Below, piece after piece: positions 1,559 to 57,065 of a DNA stretch of 64,000 bases. The notes beneath the pieces are model-generated. The model did no database searches, was not told the origin of the DNA, and saw nothing but the letters and a program-made list of their open reading frames with translations. This DNA comes from an uncultured Eubacteriales bacterium (lineage in GTDB: Bacteria; Bacillota; Clostridia; Christensenellales; UBA1242), in NCBI GenBank assembly GCA_948514155.1, contig CAOQYA010000002.1, positions 24,002 to 88,001 of the forward strand. The letters run 5' to 3'. The position numbers and the translations under genes were made by a program. The first letter of the stretch is position 1. Each line of letters begins with the position of its first letter.

Positions 1559-2104
1559 CTAAGTAAACAGATTTTTTATAAAAGTGTCTCCGTCGCAAAT
1601 GTGAATGGTCGAGTTGTGTGAGGTTTTCATGAAAGGTTTAAGCTTAAGTATTCTTTGAGTGATTTTTTGACCCTCTTTTGTGGAGCAGTCCGCCATGACC
1701 TCGATGATTTTGTGTTTAATTAAAATCGTTTGCATATGCTCTTTAGTTGCATTCAACAAGTTTCTCAACGTTTTAATGTTTCTATGTTGTTTGTCGATTA
1801 CTATAACTGGGAAGTAGATGTAATTGAAATATTTGTCGCCTCTTAGCTCCAAATCTTCAACCACGATTTCGCTTTCGTTCATTTTATTAAATTTCACTTT
1901 GTTATAGATTTCTTCTTTTAAAGACAAAATGTTTATGTATGCGATAACCTCGTCGCTCTCTTTTACGACAACACAGGAATTGGGGTTTGCAATATACCAC
2001 TTGTAAGATTCTTCAGCGGGTGCAATATTCTCGATAGGGAAATATTGTCGGTCGATTTGTTCCATTTTTTCAAAATCTTTAAATTCAAGTTTCATGACAT
2101 TCAA
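1559..2104 (-). CDS. Putative GNAT-like acetyltransferase (weak)
   Basis: 181 aa with a GNAT-like size and beta/alpha pattern, but a degenerate acetyl-CoA motif. AT-rich codon usage. Confidence 0.4.
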   Translation of the reverse strand: MNVMKLEFKDFEKMEQIDRQYFPIENIAPAEESYKWYIANPNSCVVVKESDEVIAYINILSLKEEIYNKVKFNKMNESEIVVEDLELRGDKYFNYIYFPVIVIDKQHRNIKTLRNLLNATKEHMQTILIKHKIIEVMADCSTKEGQKITQRILKLKPFMKTSHNSTIHICDGDTFIKNLFT

Positions 2105-2416
2105 CCTCTTTTGCTTAGAATTTCAGCTTCGCAGAGAGTCGTGGCAAAATGCTTTAGCATTTTTGTTTGGCCGCGAAAAGGGAAATTTCAAGCGTAAAGG
2201 CGCAGATTTTTGAGTCTACTCAAAAACAAGCAAAAGCGCAGAAATTTCCTGTGGTCGGAGTGGCGGGATTTGCTCCGCTGTGAAGTTTGCGCGAAGAGGC
2301 TTGTGCGGCTATCACGCCGGGGCGGGAAAAACTTGCGCACAGGCAACTTTTTCTGCCGCCCGTTCAAATCCACGTTTTCACTTTTATAATTTTCAACTTT
2401 TGCTTAGAATTTCCCA
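2105..2416. repeat. GC-rich structured intergenic element(s) with nested direct repeats, including a 21-nt copy of the tRNA-Pro 3' end
   Basis: TGGTCGGAGTGGCGGGATTTG at 2252-2272 equals 2417-2437. CTTTTGCTTAGAATTTC at 2108-2124 equals 2397-2413. Hairpins at 2139-2176, 2181-2249 and 2207-2226. Homologous to 19863-19990 in inverted orientation. Confidence 0.7.
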
Positions 2417-2492
2417 TGGTCGGAGTGGCGGGATTTGAACCCACGGCCTCTTGGTCCCGAACCAAGCGCGCTACCAACTGCGCTACACCCCG
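2417..2492 (-). tRNA. tRNA-Pro (anticodon CGG), CCA encoded
   Basis: The reverse complement reads CGGGGTGTAGCGCAGTTGGTAGCGCGCTTGGTTCGGGACCAAGAGGCCGTGGGTTCAAATCCCGCCACTCCGACCA. The cloverleaf arms pair and the anticodon loop is TTCGGGA. Confidence 0.9.
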
Positions 2493-13723: not shown

Positions 13724-13825
13724 GCAAAAAGTATAGCATATCGTTTGACAAAAAGAAAAGAAATGTGCTAGAATTTTTATAGTTTTAAAAAGCAATGACG
13801 AAAGAACATGGCCGAGTGTTTGCAA

Positions 13826-14026
13826 ATTCAGAGAGGTTTAGGTTGGTGCGATAAACTGTTGCAATTTCGGTGAATTCACTTTCCGAGCTGTCCGGCTGAA
13901 AATTTAAGTAGGCTGGGTCGGGTGCGACCGTGATATCGCAACTTGAGGGCGCAACAAAAAGCGCTGAAATTAGGTGGTAACGTGAAAGAGAACTCTTTCG
14001 CCCTAATGTGGCGGGGGAGTTTTTTT
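13826..14026 (+). promoter_or_regulatory. T-box leader (tRNA-Phe-responsive) with terminator/antiterminator, upstream of pheS
   Basis: T-box sequence AAATTAGGTGGTAACGTG (13967-13984). Terminator CTCTTTCGCC-ctaatgt-GGCGGGGGAG plus a T-run (13993-14026). UUC triplets are present in the upstream stem region. Confidence 0.8.
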
Positions 14027-41122: not shown

Positions 41123-41863
41123 TTATTCTTCGGCCTCTTCTGGAAGATTTACATTGTGATAAACCTCTTGCACATCGTCGAGGTCTTCCAAAATGCCGAG
41201 CATTTTTGTGAATGTTGCCAGCTTTTGTTCGTCGAGGTCTACATACATGTCCGGCACGAGGCTAACCTCGCTCATGACAACATGATAGCCCGCGTTTTCG
41301 AGAGCGCTCTTTACGCTTTCAGTCTCGTTTGGCTCTGCGATAACTTCAATTTCGTCGTCCTGTTCAATCACATCTTTTGCTCCCGCTTCTAGGGCGTCAA
41401 GCATAAGTGCGTCGCTATCAAGCCCCTCCTCGCGTGGGATAATGATAATTCCCTTTCTCTGGAAAAGATAACTAACGCAGCCCGAAGAGCCAAGTGCTCC
41501 GCCGTGCTTATCAAAAGCATGACGAACATCGCCTGCCGTTCTGTTTTTGTTATCAGTTAAGCAGTCGACAATAACTGCCGAGCCGCCCACGCCATAGCCT
41601 TCATACACGATAGACTCATAGTTAACGCTTCCCAGTTCTCCCGACGCTTTCTTGATACTTCTATCTATGTTGTCGTTTGGCATATTGTTCTGCTTTGCTT
41701 TTGCAACAACAGCGCGAAGTGCTGAGTTAGAGTTAACGTCAGGGCCGCCGAGCTTGACTGCAACAGCGATTTCCCTGCCTATTTTTGTGAATATCTTGCT
41801 TCTTGCAGCGTCGGCTTTGCCTTTCGTTGCTTGAATATTGTGCCATTTTGAGTGACCAGACAT
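41123..41863 (-). CDS. yebC: YebC/PmpR family DNA-binding transcriptional regulator
   Basis: [27 protein letters not shown]... is the canonical YebC N-terminus. Confidence 0.95.
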
Positions 41864-41869
41864 AAAAAC

Positions 41870-42215
41870 CTCCTTGAATTCGCGAAGGACACCAAATTTT
41901 TTAACGCGGACACGCCTAAAGGCTGGCCGCTAAAATTCGGATTTCCCTCGCGGGCTCCCTTCCGCATCACTCGCCGCACCTCGGGTGCTTGCGTCGTGAT
42001 AGATGGGCTAGTCTAACTACGCTCGAAAAGTAAACTTTTCGGCTTTTTGGCCGGGCGAAGCCCTTCCACCAAAAAGTTAGACATACGCTAGATTGGAATT
42101 AGAACTCTCTGCCCTTCCTTCCAAAACCAACTTTTGCGTTTTTTAATTTTAAACTTTTGGTCGGGCACAGCCCTTCCCCTCCAAAACTGGATTTCGCAGA
42201 TTATTGTTAAGAAAG
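41870..42215 (-). repeat. GC-rich structured intergenic element (type 2, long form) abutting the yebC RBS
   Basis: Shared blocks with 56875-57065: TTAACGCGGRCACG, CCGCTA, TTCCCTC, GGGC-NNN-GCCC hairpin units (42044-42075, 42155-42186, half unit 42111-42126) and CTGGATKTCGCA. Confidence 0.7.
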
Positions 42216-42284
42216 TCCGCGATGCTTTCTAATACACTGTCTATTTTATACTGTTTTGTTGAGATTTCAAAGTGATTAGCATGT

Positions 42285-43007
42285 TTAAAGCTTAGTTCTT
42301 CCCAACAAACTCATTACGATAGACCCGCTCACCGCTGCATTCAGGCTTTCAATGCCTTCGTGCATAGGAATTGTTAGCGCAATTTTGGAAATCGCTGTGA
42401 TTTCGTCGCTCACTCCTTGGCCCTCGCTGCCCACAACAATTCCAAGCGGCGTTTTAGGCTTAAATTCGAACACATTTTCGCCTCGCATATCGGTGATTGC
42501 GAGAGTTAAGCCCTCTTTTTTTGCCATTTCGATAAACTCGGAGCGCGAAAGATTGAAAACAGGAATGTTGAACACTGCTCCGGCAGTGCTTCGCACAAGT
42601 TTCGAGTTTGTTTGGCTTACTCCATCTAATATAAACACGCTTTCCATTCCAAAAGCAAGTGCACTTCGAATGAGTGTTCCCGCGTTGCCGGGGTCTTGAA
42701 TTCCGTCAAGCACAAGAAAGTTCCCTTTAGGAATTTCCACAACATGTTGTGTGTATTCTAACATAACAACCACTCCCCGCGGTGTTTTAACATCGGAAAG
42801 CGACTGAATGATATCGAGCGAAGTTAAATATTTTTCGCACTCAACTTCGGGAAGCAGTTCTTCTTTTGTGGCAAGAGCGACAATGGGCCTTGCGCCTTGA
42901 GCGACGGCGTCATTAATGATTTTTTGGTTATCTAAAAAAAGCAAAAAATTGTTTTCTCTTTTTTGCTTTTTAAGTTTTTTAACAAGTTCTCCACTTGCCT
43001 TATTCAC
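42285..43007 (-). CDS. TrmH/SpoU-family RNA 2'-O-methyltransferase
   Basis: SpoU methylase motifs (LDGIQDPGNAGTLIRSA, GSEGQGVS, ESLNAAVS). Confidence 0.85.
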   Translation of the reverse strand: MNKASGELVKKLKKQKRENNFLLFLDNQKIINDAVAQGARPIVALATKEELLPEVECEKYLTSLDIIQSLSDVKTPRGVVVMLEYTQHVVEIPKGNFLVLDGIQDPGNAGTLIRSALAFGMESVFILDGVSQTNSKLVRSTAGAVFNIPVFNLSRSEFIEMAKKEGLTLAITDMRGENVFEFKPKTPLGIVVGSEGQGVSDEITAISKIALTIPMHEGIESLNAAVSGSIVMSLLGRTKL

Positions 43008-44924: not shown

Positions 44925-45533
44925 CTACCTGTGCAACATCTCGTTTTCGCGCGGGTTGACCGCTAAGTCATTGTCCATTTGGTTTACAGCTTGAAGTTGC
45001 GCCTCAGTAGGTTTTTCTAATGGAGGCAATGTTTCAATTTGCTCTTCTTTTGGCGATTGCTCAGTCTGTTTTTTAAGTTCATTATTTCCAAGTGATAATA
45101 CACGGACAAGACCTAACTCACCTACTACAACTAAAGCAAGGGCAATCAGTGCTTTCTCGGCGTTGCTTTCAGCCTGATTATACAGCGCGGTCAGTTCTGC
45201 ACTATTTTTTTTCATTAAATCTAAAGCGTGCTCATTGCTGTTTGCATATTTTAAGTTGTTTTTATATTCTATTTGCTTTTTATTAAAAAACTCTTGGTCG
45301 GTGTTGATATTAAAATCATATTTTGAGAACTCTTCTTCTATCGATTTAATTTCGCTCTCTATCTGAGTTTTATACATGTCTGTGCTTTTGAAAGTGGTTA
45401 AAGTTTTGTGAGAACTAGAATAATATTTAATCGTAAGTCCTAGTGGCGTTGCGATACTTGCTAGCACAAAGCCAATACTCGCAAGTCTAAAAACAGATTT
45501 TACTTTTAATCGTGTGTTTTGCTTATTCTTCAT
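44925..45533 (-). CDS. Hypothetical membrane-anchored protein
   Basis: 202 aa, two hydrophobic segments, AT-rich. Confidence 0.4.
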   Translation of the reverse strand: MKNKQNTRLKVKSVFRLASIGFVLASIATPLGLTIKYYSSSHKTLTTFKSTDMYKTQIESEIKSIEEEFSKYDFNINTDQEFFNKKQIEYKNNLKYANSNEHALDLMKKNSAELTALYNQAESNAEKALIALALVVVGELGLVRVLSLGNNELKKQTEQSPKEEQIETLPPLEKPTEAQLQAVNQMDNDLAVNPRENEMLHR

Positions 45534-45597
45534 AATATCCCTTTAATTAGATTTATTGTATCAAAAAAAGGGCTTGCTGTCAAGACCTTTTTCTTCT

Positions 45598-47298
45598 CTA
45601 ATACACAATAAGTTCGTCGAGTTTCTTTGAGAGGTTTTGCTCCGAGACGAAGATTTTTTCGCCGGTGGCGCGAATGGTGATTTCAAGCGTGCCGTTTTCA
45701 AGCGTTTTTGGACTGATAACAATGCGCACTGGAATGCCCATAAGTTCGCTGTCTGTAAGTTTAAGACCGGCGGACGCATTTCTATCGTCATACAAAACCT
45801 CAAAGTTTTCGGCAACAAGTTTTTTATACAACTTCTCAGCCGCTTCTCTCACCTTCTCGTCGTCCATTCTGAGTGGGCAAAGATAGATGTGCCATGGCGC
45901 AACGCTCATAGGCCAAACAAGGCCTTTCTCGTCCGAATTCTCTTCCGCAATTGCGGCGATATTTCTGCCAATGCCAATGCCATAGCAGCCCATGATTGGA
46001 TTGAAGAGATTTCCGTCCTTGTCGTGCACCTGCATGCCCATAGACTTTGTGTATTTTGTTCCAAGCTGGAAGATATTGCCGATTTCAATTCCCTTTTTAA
46101 CGAGAAGTTTTGCGCCGCACTTAGGGCAACGCTCGCCTTCTGAAACTTTGGAGATGTCAACAAATTTTTCCGGCTTAACATCGCGCGAGATTGACACGCC
46201 TTGATAGTGGAAGCCTTCTTTGTTTGCTCCGGTCACGAAACTTTCTAAGCCCTCGAGCGATTTGTCAAAATAGATTTCTGCGCCCTCAACACTGAGGTCC
46301 ACGCAGCCGATATTGCCTTTAACAAGGCCGCTGTCTTCGAGATTTTTGATTGCAATGTCGCCGCCAACGAGGAGTTTGAGTTTTGCTTCGTTAACCTCCT
46401 TGTCGCCTCTAAGGAAAGCAATCACAACCCGTTTCTCGTCGCCGATAACAGCATAGCAGACCGCCTTGCAAACTTGAGAAGGCTTTTTATTGAGATTGGA
46501 GCAAACTTCGTCAATAGACTTTGCCTCGCCGGTGAAAACTTCTTGTTTTACTCCGAAGATGTGGTCGTTTTCGTCCATAACTGATGTTGCAACATCGATG
46601 TTGGAAGCCGTGTCGCAGTCTGGGCAGATTATGATTGTGTCCTCGCCTATTTCAGTAAGAAGTTGGAACTCGTCGGCAACCTTGCCCCCCATCATTCCGC
46701 CGTCCGAATGCACAGCAATAACCTTCTTCAGCCCCATGCGGCGATAGATTTTAAAATATGCGTCATAGAGTTTTTTATAATACTCTTCCAAATCTTCTTG
46801 CGTTTCATGGAAGGAATATGCGTCTTTCATAAGAAACTCGCGCACGCGAATAAGTCCCGCTCTTGGACGGGCTTCGTCGCGCACCTTGGTCTGAATTTGA
46901 TAAATCATAAATGGCAGCTGGTCATAACTCTTAATTGTGTCCATGGCTGCATGCACAGACGCCTCTTCGTGGGTCATGCCGATAACAAGGTCGTGACCGC
47001 CCCTGTCTTTAAAGCGCATCATCTCTTGTCCGATTGAAGAATATCTTCCGCTCATGTCCCAAAGTTCGCGAGGCATAACAACCGGGAAAAGACACTCCTG
47101 TCCGCCTACTGCGTCCATTTCTTCGCGAATGATTGCTTGAATTTTTTTGCTAATTCGCTCAGCCGGAGGAAGAAGTGTGAAAATTCCGCCGCCCACTTGT
47201 TTTATGTAGCCCGCGCGCGAAAGGAAGATGTGACTTTTTGCTGTTGCGTCTGCTGGAGGATTTTTAAATCTTTCCCCCAAAAGTTTACTCATTCTCAT
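45598..47298 (-). CDS. proS: Prolyl-tRNA synthetase (bacterial type with INS editing domain)
   Basis: Class II motifs (FRDEARPRAGLIRVREF, GCYGIGIGR) and a C-terminal anticodon-binding domain. Confidence 0.95.
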   Translation of the reverse strand: MRMSKLLGERFKNPPADATAKSHIFLSRAGYIKQVGGGIFTLLPPAERISKKIQAIIREEMDAVGGQECLFPVVMPRELWDMSGRYSSIGQEMMRFKDRGGHDLVIGMTHEEASVHAAMDTIKSYDQLPFMIYQIQTKVRDEARPRAGLIRVREFLMKDAYSFHETQEDLEEYYKKLYDAYFKIYRRMGLKKVIAVHSDGGMMGGKVADEFQLLTEIGEDTIIICPDCDTASNIDVATSVMDENDHIFGVKQEVFTGEAKSIDEVCSNLNKKPSQVCKAVCYAVIGDEKRVVIAFLRGDKEVNEAKLKLLVGGDIAIKNLEDSGLVKGNIGCVDLSVEGAEIYFDKSLEGLESFVTGANKEGFHYQGVSISRDVKPEKFVDISKVSEGERCPKCGAKLLVKKGIEIGNIFQLGTKYTKSMGMQVHDKDGNLFNPIMGCYGIGIGRNIAAIAEENSDEKGLVWPMSVAPWHIYLCPLRMDDEKVREAAEKLYKKLVAENFEVLYDDRNASAGLKLTDSELMGIPVRIVISPKTLENGTLEITIRATGEKIFVSEQNLSKKLDELIVY

Positions 47299-50932: not shown

Positions 50933-50973
50933 CTTTTCGTCCTCCTTTTTTGTTAATTAGATTTTTCTTGAAC

Positions 50974-51100
50974 GGGGCGACGCAATCGGCGCGCGCGTAG
51001 CGCGCGCCCCCGCCCTCGGGCGCCAAGCGCAAAAAGTATTTTTGCGAGCCGCCCGAGGGCTGTAAATTTCGCCTCCGGCGAAATTTGCTTGCGTCGCCCC
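50974..51100. repeat. GC-rich perfect four-way-junction (cloverleaf-like) palindromic element between spoIIIAE and spoIIIAF
   Basis: Outer 12-bp stem 50974-50985/51089-51100. Arms: 50988-51008 (9 bp); 51012-51022/51050-51060 (11 bp) enclosing 51028-51046 (8 bp); and 51064-51086 (10 bp). All pairs are Watson-Crick. Confidence 0.8.
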
Positions 51101-51120
51101 ACTTGTCCTTGCCCCGAGTG

Positions 51121-55398: not shown

Positions 55399-55956
55399 TT
55401 ATGCTCTACTCATGTAAGAGCCGTCGCGGGTGTCAATTCTCACGCGCTCGCCTTGGCTGATAAAAAGTGGAACATTGATAACATATCCCGTCTCAAGTTT
55501 AGCCGGCTTTGTGGCAGCCTTTGAAGTGTCGCCCTGCACTGCCGGCTCGCAGTCAACAATTTCAAGTTCAACAAATGTTGGAGGATAAACTGAAAATGGA
55601 GTTCCTTTGTAGAAATACATTGTTGCGTTCATGTTCTCCACCATAAACTTAAGCGCTTCCTCAACAGCGTCATAGTTAAGTGGAATTTGCTCGTATGTTT
55701 CTGCGTCCATGAAGTAGTAAAGTTCGCCGTCGCTGTAAAGATAGGTCATTTCCTTTTTCTCGATAACTGCAACTTGGAATTTATCGGAAGGGTTAAAAGT
55801 GAGTTCCTTCACTTGACCTGTCATAACATTTTTGATTTTTGCTCTCACGAATGGTGAGCCTTTGCCCGGCTTAACATGCAAAAAGTCGATAACAGTGTAA
55901 ACTGCACCGTCCATTTCAAAAGTTGTGCCTTTTCTAAATTCTCCAGCTGTAATCAT
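55399..55956 (-). CDS. efp: Elongation factor P
   Basis: [17 protein letters not shown]...[16 protein letters not shown]. Confidence 0.97.
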
Positions 55957-56000: not shown

Positions 56001-56867
56001 TTATTGCGTCTTAGCAAGCAATTTTTTGTAAATTCTTTTCATTTCTGCGGCGTCTTTTGCCATATGCCCTGCCGACTCCGAAATTATTCGCGGATGCAGG
56101 TCAAGTTCGACAAGAGCCTCGGCAAGCGGCTGAAAGTTTGGGCCATAGATTTCGTCGTCAAAATTCAGGTGGCGAATTTCGCCTTTCTCGCCAAATTGAA
56201 TTTTGGAAAAGTGGATGTGTGCGATGTTTGTTTTCTCATAGCCGATAACATCAATCGAGCGCTGCAGAATTTTCTTGAAATCGTCCTTAGTTTTCAGCGA
56301 GCCCTGAGTGAGCGCGTTGATGTGTCCAAAATCGAAGGTCGGAATAAGGTGGGCGTTGCCGGCGCAGATTTCAAGCACTTCTTCATATGTGCCAATTTGC
56401 ATCTGCTTGCCCATTGTCTCAGGGCAGAGATAAATTCCCTCCAAAAGCCCTTCACTATCAAGTGCGTTCACAAGTTCTGAAATGCGCTCCTTTGCGATTT
56501 TGAAGGCATCGCTCCTTTCGGCTTTGCCGCAGGAAGCCGGGTGAAAGACCAGCCTGTCAGCCCCAAAAGCCCTCAAAAATTTAATGCCCGTCGTGATGTA
56601 GCCCCTGGTTTTTCCCAGCAGCACTTCGTCAGGCGAGGCAAAATTGATAAAATATGGCGCGTGCAGAGAAAGCGCAATGCCTTCCTCCTTAAACGCATCG
56701 CCAATCTTTCTTGCAGTCTCAGTTGGCATGATGTAGCCGCGGCCGAAAGAATATTCGAATGCGTCAAGCCCCCTTGCCTTCAGCCATTTAGGGGCCTGCA
56801 AGGTTGTTTTGTTGCCTTCAGCATGAAAACTTTCGCTGTTGCCCGCAGGGCCGAAAAGTGTTTGCAT
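56001..56867 (-). CDS. TIM-barrel protein of the endonuclease IV / xylose-isomerase-like superfamily
   Basis: LHAPYFINFASPD, FHPAS, CPETMG, FDFGH (metal-ligand pattern of the Nfo-like family). ATG 56867 follows AGGAGG. Confidence 0.55.
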   Translation of the reverse strand: MQTLFGPAGNSESFHAEGNKTTLQAPKWLKARGLDAFEYSFGRGYIMPTETARKIGDAFKEEGIALSLHAPYFINFASPDEVLLGKTRGYITTGIKFLRAFGADRLVFHPASCGKAERSDAFKIAKERISELVNALDSEGLLEGIYLCPETMGKQMQIGTYEEVLEICAGNAHLIPTFDFGHINALTQGSLKTKDDFKKILQRSIDVIGYEKTNIAHIHFSKIQFGEKGEIRHLNFDDEIYGPNFQPLAEALVELDLHPRIISESAGHMAKDAAEMKRIYKKLLAKTQ

Positions 56868-56874
56868 AATTCCT

Positions 56875-57065
56875 CCTGGGGAGGCACCGACCTCGTTTAA
56901 CGCGGGCACGGTGCTTTGCTAACCTAACCGCTACTCGGTCGGTTCCCTCCCAATCTCCCTCCACTGGCGGGGCTCACCCAGCTTTCCCTCAAGCAAATTC
57001 ATGAATGAATTTCTTTCGGTTGTCGCTGGGCAAAGCCCTTCCCCGACAAAGCTGGATGTCGCATA
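56875..57065 (-). repeat. GC-rich structured intergenic element (type 2, short form) abutting the RBS of the TIM-barrel gene
   Basis: Same blocks as 41870-42215: TTAACGCGGGCACG 56897-56910, CCGCTA 56928-56933, TTCCCTC 56943-56949, hairpin unit 57020-57049, CTGGATGTCGCA 57052-57063. Confidence 0.7.

Follow-up and report, generated by a model that had tools for sequence, protein, structure and literature searches.

A modular G-rich element with predicted RNA structure lies between stop codons and Shine-Dalgarno sequences ahead of yebC and an AP_endonuc_2-efp gene pair in an uncultured clostridial bacterium

We analyzed a 64,000-nt stretch of DNA (the window) from an uncultured Eubacteriales bacterium. 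The intergenic gap between trmH and yebC spans 421 nt (41864-42284) and carries copy 1 of a GC-rich element. A second copy precedes a gene of the AP_endonuc_2 family. The genes at the yebC locus and the second copy are located as follows.

42285-43007, minus strand: SpoU/TrmH methylase gene (trmH)
41123-41863, minus strand: yebC
56867-57063, minus strand: copy 2 of the element, between truB and the AP_endonuc_2-family gene

The efp gene begins 44 nt after the AP_endonuc_2 gene and is the second gene downstream of copy 2. Both copies are on the minus strand, and each ends at the Shine-Dalgarno (SD) sequence of the next gene. The initial annotation had described a trmH-yebC gap of about 420 nt and an element sharing ordered blocks, helices and hairpin units with the second locus. 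All of its blocks, helices and coordinates proved exact when we re-checked them, and the features it listed for the gap all lie inside it. They include the copy 1 helix CCAAATTTT/AAAATTCGG (41892-41900/41932-41940), the copy 2 helix ACCGACC/GGTCGGT (56886-56892/56937-56943), hairpin units at 42044-42075, 42155-42186 and 57020-57049, and a half unit at 42111-42126.

We searched the window for additional copies. A covariance model of the 3' domain (R1), run with filters off across the 64 kb, gave 99.3 bits for copy 2 and 82.3 bits for copy 1; the next-best match reached 11.8 bits. The motif GGAAGGGC-NNN-GCCC occurred with zero mismatches only at 42053, 42163 and 57028. Allowing up to two mismatches gave 10 matches, compared with 2.35 expected, and none of 100 shuffles produced 10 or more. 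Exact matches to CGTGYCCGCGTTAA were confined to the two element loci, and CTGGATKTCGCA was present at 42187-42198 and 57052-57063. A short-word BLAST of the window found no further element copy. The covariance scores and exact block matches indicate that the window contains exactly two copies.

Read as gene-sense RNA (window minus strand), the element consists of a 5' block, one or more hairpin units, a CCGAAA(G) hairpin, a variable hairpin and a 3' domain of ~90 nt, in that order. The 5' block has the consensus UGCGAMAUCCAG. Each element has one to three tandem hairpin units. In a unit, a variable outer stem leads through an internal loop, purine-rich on its 5' side (GGGGAA or GGAA), to an inner GGGC-NNN-GCCC stem. 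Copy 2 has one unit; copy 1 has two intact units and one degenerate unit. One or two variable hairpins separate the units from the 3' domain. Four helices (P1-P4) form the 3' domain, in which P3 is GCGG/CCGC, P4 is variable, and the conserved joints are GGGAA, UAGCGG, CGUGYC, CCGCGUUAA and GGUG. The 3' strand of P1 is C-rich and stops 0-6 nt short of the SD. Copy 1 has the following features.

42243..42270, minus strand: promoter-like TTGAAA-16-TAAAAT (10/12 consensus matches; a consensus match only)
42187..42198, minus strand: 5' block UGCGAAAUCCAG, with its counterpart block at 57052-57063
42155..42186, minus strand: hairpin unit 1, UUUUGG-AGGGGAA-GGGC-UGU-GCCC-GA-CCAAAA
42094..42126, minus strand: degenerate hairpin unit 2, with the outer stem UUGGAA/UUCCAA retained and the inner GCCC half gone
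42011..42082, minus strand: stem GUCUAAC/GUUAGAC, in the minimum-free-energy and centroid folds
41966..42010, minus strand: variable middle hairpin (AUCAC.../...GUGAU, GCACC-CGA-GGUGC), then GGAAGGGAG (predicted fold only)
41879..41965, minus strand: 3' domain (covariance model R1, 82.3 bits)
41869-41875, minus strand: SD AAGGAGG, with the yebC start codon at 41861-41863

The candidate promoter at 42243..42270 would give yebC a leader of ~370 nt. The CGAAA of the 5' block can alternatively pair with UUUUG of unit 1, which places UCCAG in the loop. This alternative stem covaries, reading CGACA/UGUCG in copy 2 and CGAUA/UGUCG in the sister-lineage sequence L029. Hairpin unit 2 is intact in contigs L001 and L041 (GGGCUGUGCCC and GGGCUUUGCCC). 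The stem at 42011..42082 surrounds unit 3 (42044-42075) and a CCGAAAAG-UUUA-CUUUUCG hairpin (42022-42042). Within the 3' domain of copy 1, P1 pairs GCGAGGGA (41944-51) with UCCUUCGC (41882-89), P2 is CCGAAUUU/AAAUUUGG, P3 is GCGG/CCGC and P4 is GCCU/AGGC; the variable joint reads CGUGUC. Copy 2 is simpler and has these features.

57052..57063, minus strand: 5' block UGCGACAUCCAG, 15 nt past the truB stop codon
57020..57050, minus strand: single hairpin unit, UUUGUCG-GGGAA-GGGC-UUU-GCCC-AG-CGACAA
56955..57019, minus strand: CCGAAAG hairpin (GAAAUUCAU/AUGAAUUU), then a small GCCCCGCC-AGU-GGAGGG hairpin
56875..56964, minus strand: 3' domain (R1, 99.3 bits)
56872-56877, minus strand: SD AGGAGG, with the AP_endonuc_2 start codon at 56865-56867

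The helices of the copy 2 3' domain are GGGAGG/CCUCCC (P1), ACCGACC/GGUCGGU (P2), GCGG/CCGC (P3) and GGU/ACC (P4). The outer stem of its hairpin unit covaries with L001 and L041. The CCGAAAG hairpin shows a compensatory change from U-A to C-G in L001 and L041, and a second one, identified by eye, in L029.

We used alignments of the element to evaluate the predicted structure and its strand. The 3'-domain alignment contained seven model matches, corresponding to six distinct sequences. Standard pairs filled 91.3% of its cells, compared with 40-50% when the pairing partners were slid by 1-3 columns. Eight of the 21 pairs were altered on both sides, and none of 500 shuffles reached the observed covariation score. 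An alignment of copy-2-type sequences contributed five further compensatory pairs, located in the hairpin-unit outer stem, the CCGAAAG hairpin and P2. Predicted folds of the sense strand hold 2-11 G·U pairs, and G·U is also among the pair types of the covarying helices. In all five variants the sense strand folds 3.9-19.5 kcal/mol better than its complement. Because G·U pairs would become C·A mismatches on the other strand, these fold predictions, together with the stability of the sense strand, indicate that the functional molecule is most likely the G-rich, gene-sense RNA. These results bear out the earlier proposal of a structured RNA with covarying helices. The predicted structure and its strand specificity are supportive rather than conclusive, since only about six distinct sequences contribute and the structure was derived from those same sequences.

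The initial annotation also proposed that a block near the 3' end pairs with the SD. Complementary partners are present in both copies (UCCUU/AAGGA in copy 1 and CCUCC/GGAGG in copy 2). The C-rich anti-SD strand doubles as the 3' strand of P1 (GCGAGGGA/UCCUUCGC in copy 1 and GGGAGG/CCUCCC in copy 2), and the longer P1 helix wins over anti-SD:SD pairing in thermodynamic predictions. P1 was predicted to form, with most SD nucleotides unpaired at probabilities of 0.6-1.0, in four of five variants, L039 being the exception. The centroid fold of L001 contained the anti-SD:SD hairpin in place of P1. In some variants the two states differ little in energy, and a switch would be compatible with this. 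The proposed complementarity stands, but the SD-occluded state is not the predicted default, since P1 holds the C-rich strand. We rejected an RNA thermometer or a simple SD-sequestering hairpin because most of the SD is predicted to be unpaired in these four variants (L039 excepted).

We compared copy 2 with the equivalent site in the sister lineage L029, in which the AP_endonuc_2 protein is 85% identical. Identities between the window and L029 were as follows.

Copy 2 element: 93.9% nucleotide identity
truB tail: 71.7% nucleotide identity
AP_endonuc_2 CDS: 80.7% nucleotide identity
efp CDS: 89.9% nucleotide identity
Four-fold degenerate sites in AP_endonuc_2: 56.6% identity
Four-fold degenerate sites in efp: 65.9% identity

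Sliding windows revealed an island of 88-98% identity that coincides with the element. The differences between the two sequences are few, and several are compensatory or create G·U pairs. Conservation across ~200 nt could arise from purifying selection or from very recent exchange. We consider selection more parsimonious because the immediate flanks of the element have diverged. At the yebC locus, L042 (YebC 89% identical) has sequence of the L001/copy-2 type in the 39 nt that immediately precede the start codon. The element was found only in the window species and close sister-lineage sequences, plus one homologue in another organism (L033). These comparisons show that the element is strongly constrained and lineage-restricted.

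Related genomes that lack the element reveal how it is positioned. Relatives with 85-86% identical YebC retain the gene order infC-rpmI-rplT-trmH-yebC-ruvCAB. Their trmH-yebC gap is 10 nt in two cases and consists of 139 nt of unrelated AT-rich sequence in the third. In relatives with 75-77% identical AP_endonuc_2, the truB TAA directly precedes AGGAGG and there is no element. The 3'-domain model had no match in ~130 kb from relatives. The short gaps in syntenic congeners indicate that the element was inserted exactly between a stop codon and an SD. On this comparison of gene neighborhoods, the element in the window lineage is an insertion and not an ancient conserved leader. The idea of a conserved yebC leader was thus contradicted, as the element is missing from both loci in syntenic congeners whose YebC is 85-86% identical. 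Its absence from the closest congeners also implies that these genes do not need it. We compared filled and empty sites by eye and saw no terminal inverted repeats or target-site duplications at the TAA-AGGAGG insertion junctions. A MITE was rejected on these grounds.

The element varies within the window species. Contigs that encode identical YebC proteins bear two very different yebC leaders. The leader is 421 nt in the window type, 433 nt in L039 and L040, and 354 nt in the L001/L041 type. The two allele types are alike in their 5' part up to the GGGC of hairpin unit 2 and differ from there on, which suggests recombination within hairpin units. The 3' 170 nt of the L001/L041 leader are ~87% identical to copy 2 of the window, not to copy 1. 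Five of ten contigs start inside the element.

We scanned sequence collections for exact matches to the element pattern. A metagenome collection yielded one true match (L033, 33% GC) and four chance matches. The scan of a genome collection returned two chance matches only, with a pattern so strict that it missed even the window species. Three scans of viral contigs also gave chance matches only, and a BLAST of copy 2 against plasmids and phages found no match. The L033 copy scores 91.5 bits and includes a hairpin unit and a hairpin with UCCAG in its loop. It runs toward the stop codon of rpsG, in convergent orientation, and is followed by neither a gene nor an SD. It is preceded by 2.2 tandem 245-nt repeats (L033 509-1037, plus strand), downstream of rpsG. 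TTGACT-17-TAAACT is present in each 245-nt unit, along with a degenerate form of the 3' core of the element. In this degenerate core at the repeat ends, P3 is GCUG/CAGC, a compensatory change relative to GCGG/CCGC. In the relative L038, fusA directly follows rpsG and there is no element. Random orientation relative to genes had been named as evidence against a leader. The L033 homologue does run against its flanking genes with no gene downstream, at this one locus. In the window lineage, both copies and every allele point in the direction of the genes and have their 3' ends at an SD.

These features raise the possibility that the element is a selfish or neutral interspersed repeat of the BOX/REP/MITE type, which spreads and recombines at the DNA level and is tolerated between cistrons without a dedicated regulatory role. 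Such a repeat could insert precisely between a stop codon and an SD, vary from one to three tandem units and from 354 to 421 and 433 nt among strains, exchange alleles at a junction within a hairpin unit, leave five of ten contigs starting inside it, and occur at L033 in inverted orientation next to tandem 245-nt repeats. The genome also contains other GC-rich palindromic insertions between cistrons, for example in the spoIIIAE-spoIIIAF gap (188 versus 12 nt). We nevertheless consider this explanation somewhat unlikely. The element is 93.9% identical across lineages in which neutral sites are ~60% identical, and its strand-asymmetric G·U pairing points to constraint at the RNA level. The insertion junctions show no terminal inverted repeats or target duplications, only two copies occur in 64 kb, and none was found in ~130 kb of relatives. 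The exact-pattern scans and BLAST of genome, viral, plasmid and phage collections likewise gave no further copies, the genome pattern being too strict.

REPs are imperfect palindromes of 20-40 nt that usually occur as inverted pairs and are linked to RAYT transposases. We rejected a REP/BIME assignment because the units described here are direct tandem repeats with a GGAAGGGC-NNN-GCCC core, not inverted palindrome pairs with GTAG-type heads, and they are joined to a large non-palindromic domain. The initial annotation had offered a REP/MITE-like element as its alternative. The variable module number, the alleles swapped within one species, the contig breaks inside the element and the orientation of the L033 homologue support that suggestion in part, but MITE ends and REP/BIME palindromes are lacking. 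The element does resemble REP/BIME and ERIC sequences as a structured insertion between cistrons, a type of insertion that alters mRNA stability or downstream expression (PMC3049150 and general background on these repeats).

The closest parallel in organization is the BOX element of Streptococcus pneumoniae, which combines boxA, a variable number of boxB modules and boxC, is predicted to form stable RNA stem-loops, and can affect downstream genes (PMC3049150). Both are composites in which fixed end modules surround a variable number of self-folding tandem internal modules (one to three here). Both vary in length among strains, occupy intergenic, co-transcribed positions and are predicted to form stable stem-loops. 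The element differs from BOX in having no sequence similarity to it, no terminal inverted repeat seen between its end modules, and two copies in the 64 kb window. It also stands out as GC-rich against an AT-rich genome, has flanks that are far less conserved between species than it is, and is tied to an SD at its 3' end.

Other repeat-like sequences were observed in the window, and the first of these is unrelated in sequence to the yebC-leader element.

50933-51120, minus sense: GC-rich nested palindromes (GC 0.59 overall, up to 0.72) that fill the spoIIIAE-spoIIIAF gap, with the outer pair GGGGCGACGCAA...TTGCGTCGCCCC around three inner hairpins; the gap is 188 nt in the window versus 12 nt in the relative L031
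19836-19995, plus strand: GC-rich multi-hairpin block (GCGCCAAAAA/TTTTTTGGCGC, GGCGAACATGAAC/GTTCATGTTCGCC and others), just past a terminator-like hairpin within a 503-nt intergenic region
2100-2492, minus strand: region in which the tRNA at 2420-2492 has its 3' end (AAATCCCGCCACTCCGACCA) duplicated at ~2250-2275 and GAAATTCTAAGCAAAAG recurs twice

The tRNA-end duplication at 2100-2492 looks like an att-type arrangement left by integration at the tRNA gene.

We also considered whether the element is a small RNA, free-standing or processed, with a function in trans, for example as a G-rich sponge for a C-rich sRNA, CsrA or the 16S anti-SD, with its position next to an SD being incidental. A -10-like hexamer lies 1-2 nt 5' of the 5' block (TAAAAT at 1 nt in copy 2, TATAAT in L029 and AATAAT in copy 1). 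The promoter-like TTGACT-17-TAAACT of each L033 repeat unit, at a locus with no downstream gene, and the many SD-like GGA and GGGAA motifs in the element would also suit such an RNA. The GGA motifs may, as CsrA sites, be trivial in a sequence so rich in G. Three observations make a small RNA improbable: the sense strand has no terminator-like site after the element, the element in the window lineage always runs into an SD and start codon, and the promoter calls are weak, with none found for copy 2.

We compared the element to known structured RNAs. A search of Rfam 15 with both window copies and the L033 copy matched no family at the gathering score or at E<=10 beyond noise matches to miRNA, snoRNA and lncRNA models at E of 0.04 or more. 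The T-box model does recover a true T-box in the window, listed here as a separate observation.

13786-14008, plus strand: T-box leader (107 bits versus a gathering score of 93)

A T-box-like or PyrR-like site within the element was rejected, as only short resemblances (AUCCAG, UGGUG) and no model match were found. A K-turn in the hairpin unit was rejected because the internal loop has a variable 3' side (GA, AG, GG, GU). Like translational riboswitches and protein-binding leaders, the element has a C-rich strand that can pair with either an SD-like upstream strand (P1) or the SD, and it combines conserved junction nucleotides with covarying stems. These shared features could describe a metabolite-sensing riboswitch with a translational expression platform. 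We regard a riboswitch as very improbable. Unlike those leaders, the element matches no Rfam family, is not conserved across the genus and has a variable number of modules. It is present in few lineages and absent from congeners, its downstream genes have no common metabolic theme, and repeated modules of variable number with swapped alleles are atypical for aptamers.

The genes that follow the element include two linked to stalling at proline stretches: proteins of the YebC family and EF-P each act to relieve it (PMC11990639, PMC12234827), and YebC binds RNA (PMC12234827). The element might be a dedicated regulator of polyproline-stall rescue factors that controls yebC and the efp operon jointly, for instance as an rRNA or tRNA mimic to which YebC, EF-P or the ribosome would bind. 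One copy lies ahead of yebC and the other ahead of AP_endonuc_2-efp, and sister-lineage sequences carry the element at each locus (AP_endonuc_2-efp in L029 and yebC in L042, on two separate short contigs). The L033 copy also adjoins translation genes (rpsL-rpsG). Against this explanation, efp is separated from the element by one gene, congeners that lack the element express the same genes, and the L033 copy regulates no downstream gene. The window is also packed with translation genes, so the adjacency of element and gene may be due to chance. Genes for prolyl-tRNA synthetase (proS), EF-P and YebC lie within 15 kb on one strand (44925-47298 and 55399-55956, minus). Clustering of this kind in a region dense in translation genes weakens any functional inference drawn from adjacency alone. 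There is no conserved upstream ORF with proline codons, and we rejected a leader peptide or polyproline upstream ORF because three-frame translations of three variants have no common ORF. Taken together, we judge joint, dedicated control of these factors to be quite improbable.

The explanation that we favor, with a probability of roughly 0.4, is that the element belongs to a previously undescribed family of structured RNAs, modular and rich in G, that influence the cistron downstream of them in cis and evolve in a BOX-like manner. The element would be transcribed with its flanking genes (window minus strand), one copy having been inserted precisely between the stop codon of trmH and the SD of yebC, and the second placed between the truB stop codon and the SD of the AP_endonuc_2-efp pair. 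In the predicted ground state, P1 would hold the anti-SD-like strand and leave most of the SD open behind a stable structured leader. If P1 were opened, the C-rich strand could fold onto the SD and lower initiation. Some factor could open P1 by binding either the G-rich, SD-like strand or the conserved joints. The element may thus tune translation, and probably 5' stability, of yebC and AP_endonuc_2-efp, and the likely mechanism would be competition between P1 and anti-SD:SD pairing, probably with an added 5' stabilizing effect. During evolution, modules would be gained and lost and alleles replaced by recombination within hairpin units, while a relative of the element would occupy another context in another organism (L033). 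The absence of the element from congeners, the orientation of the L033 copy, the two alleles in one species and the small number of distinct sequences (about six) all count against this explanation. The cis-regulatory leader RNA suggested in the initial annotation is retained here in part: the element is structured, co-oriented with genes, constrained and ends at the SD, but it is not conserved before the orthologous genes in congeners. A bolder version of the favored explanation, which we regard as a long shot, holds that the element represents a cis-regulatory RNA of a new class, linking YebC and EF-P expression to the state of the translation machinery, perhaps by way of G-rich, SD-like modules that bind YebC, EF-P or the 30S anti-SD, and that it has spread between loci as a mobile RNA module. 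The portions of the YebC and EF-P literature available to us describe no such control of yebC or efp expression.

If the favored explanation is correct, it would represent a further family among the few bacterial elements that combine repeat-like behavior with selection at the RNA level. Although modular and recombining among strains, the element differs little from species to species. It would also clearly exemplify how selection fixed a structured sequence after its insertion between a stop codon and an SD. For annotation, the element identifies a site at which assemblies recurrently break and a gap in Rfam coverage of uncultured Firmicutes. For the biology of gut Clostridia, it may offer a lead on how expression of yebC and efp is tuned.
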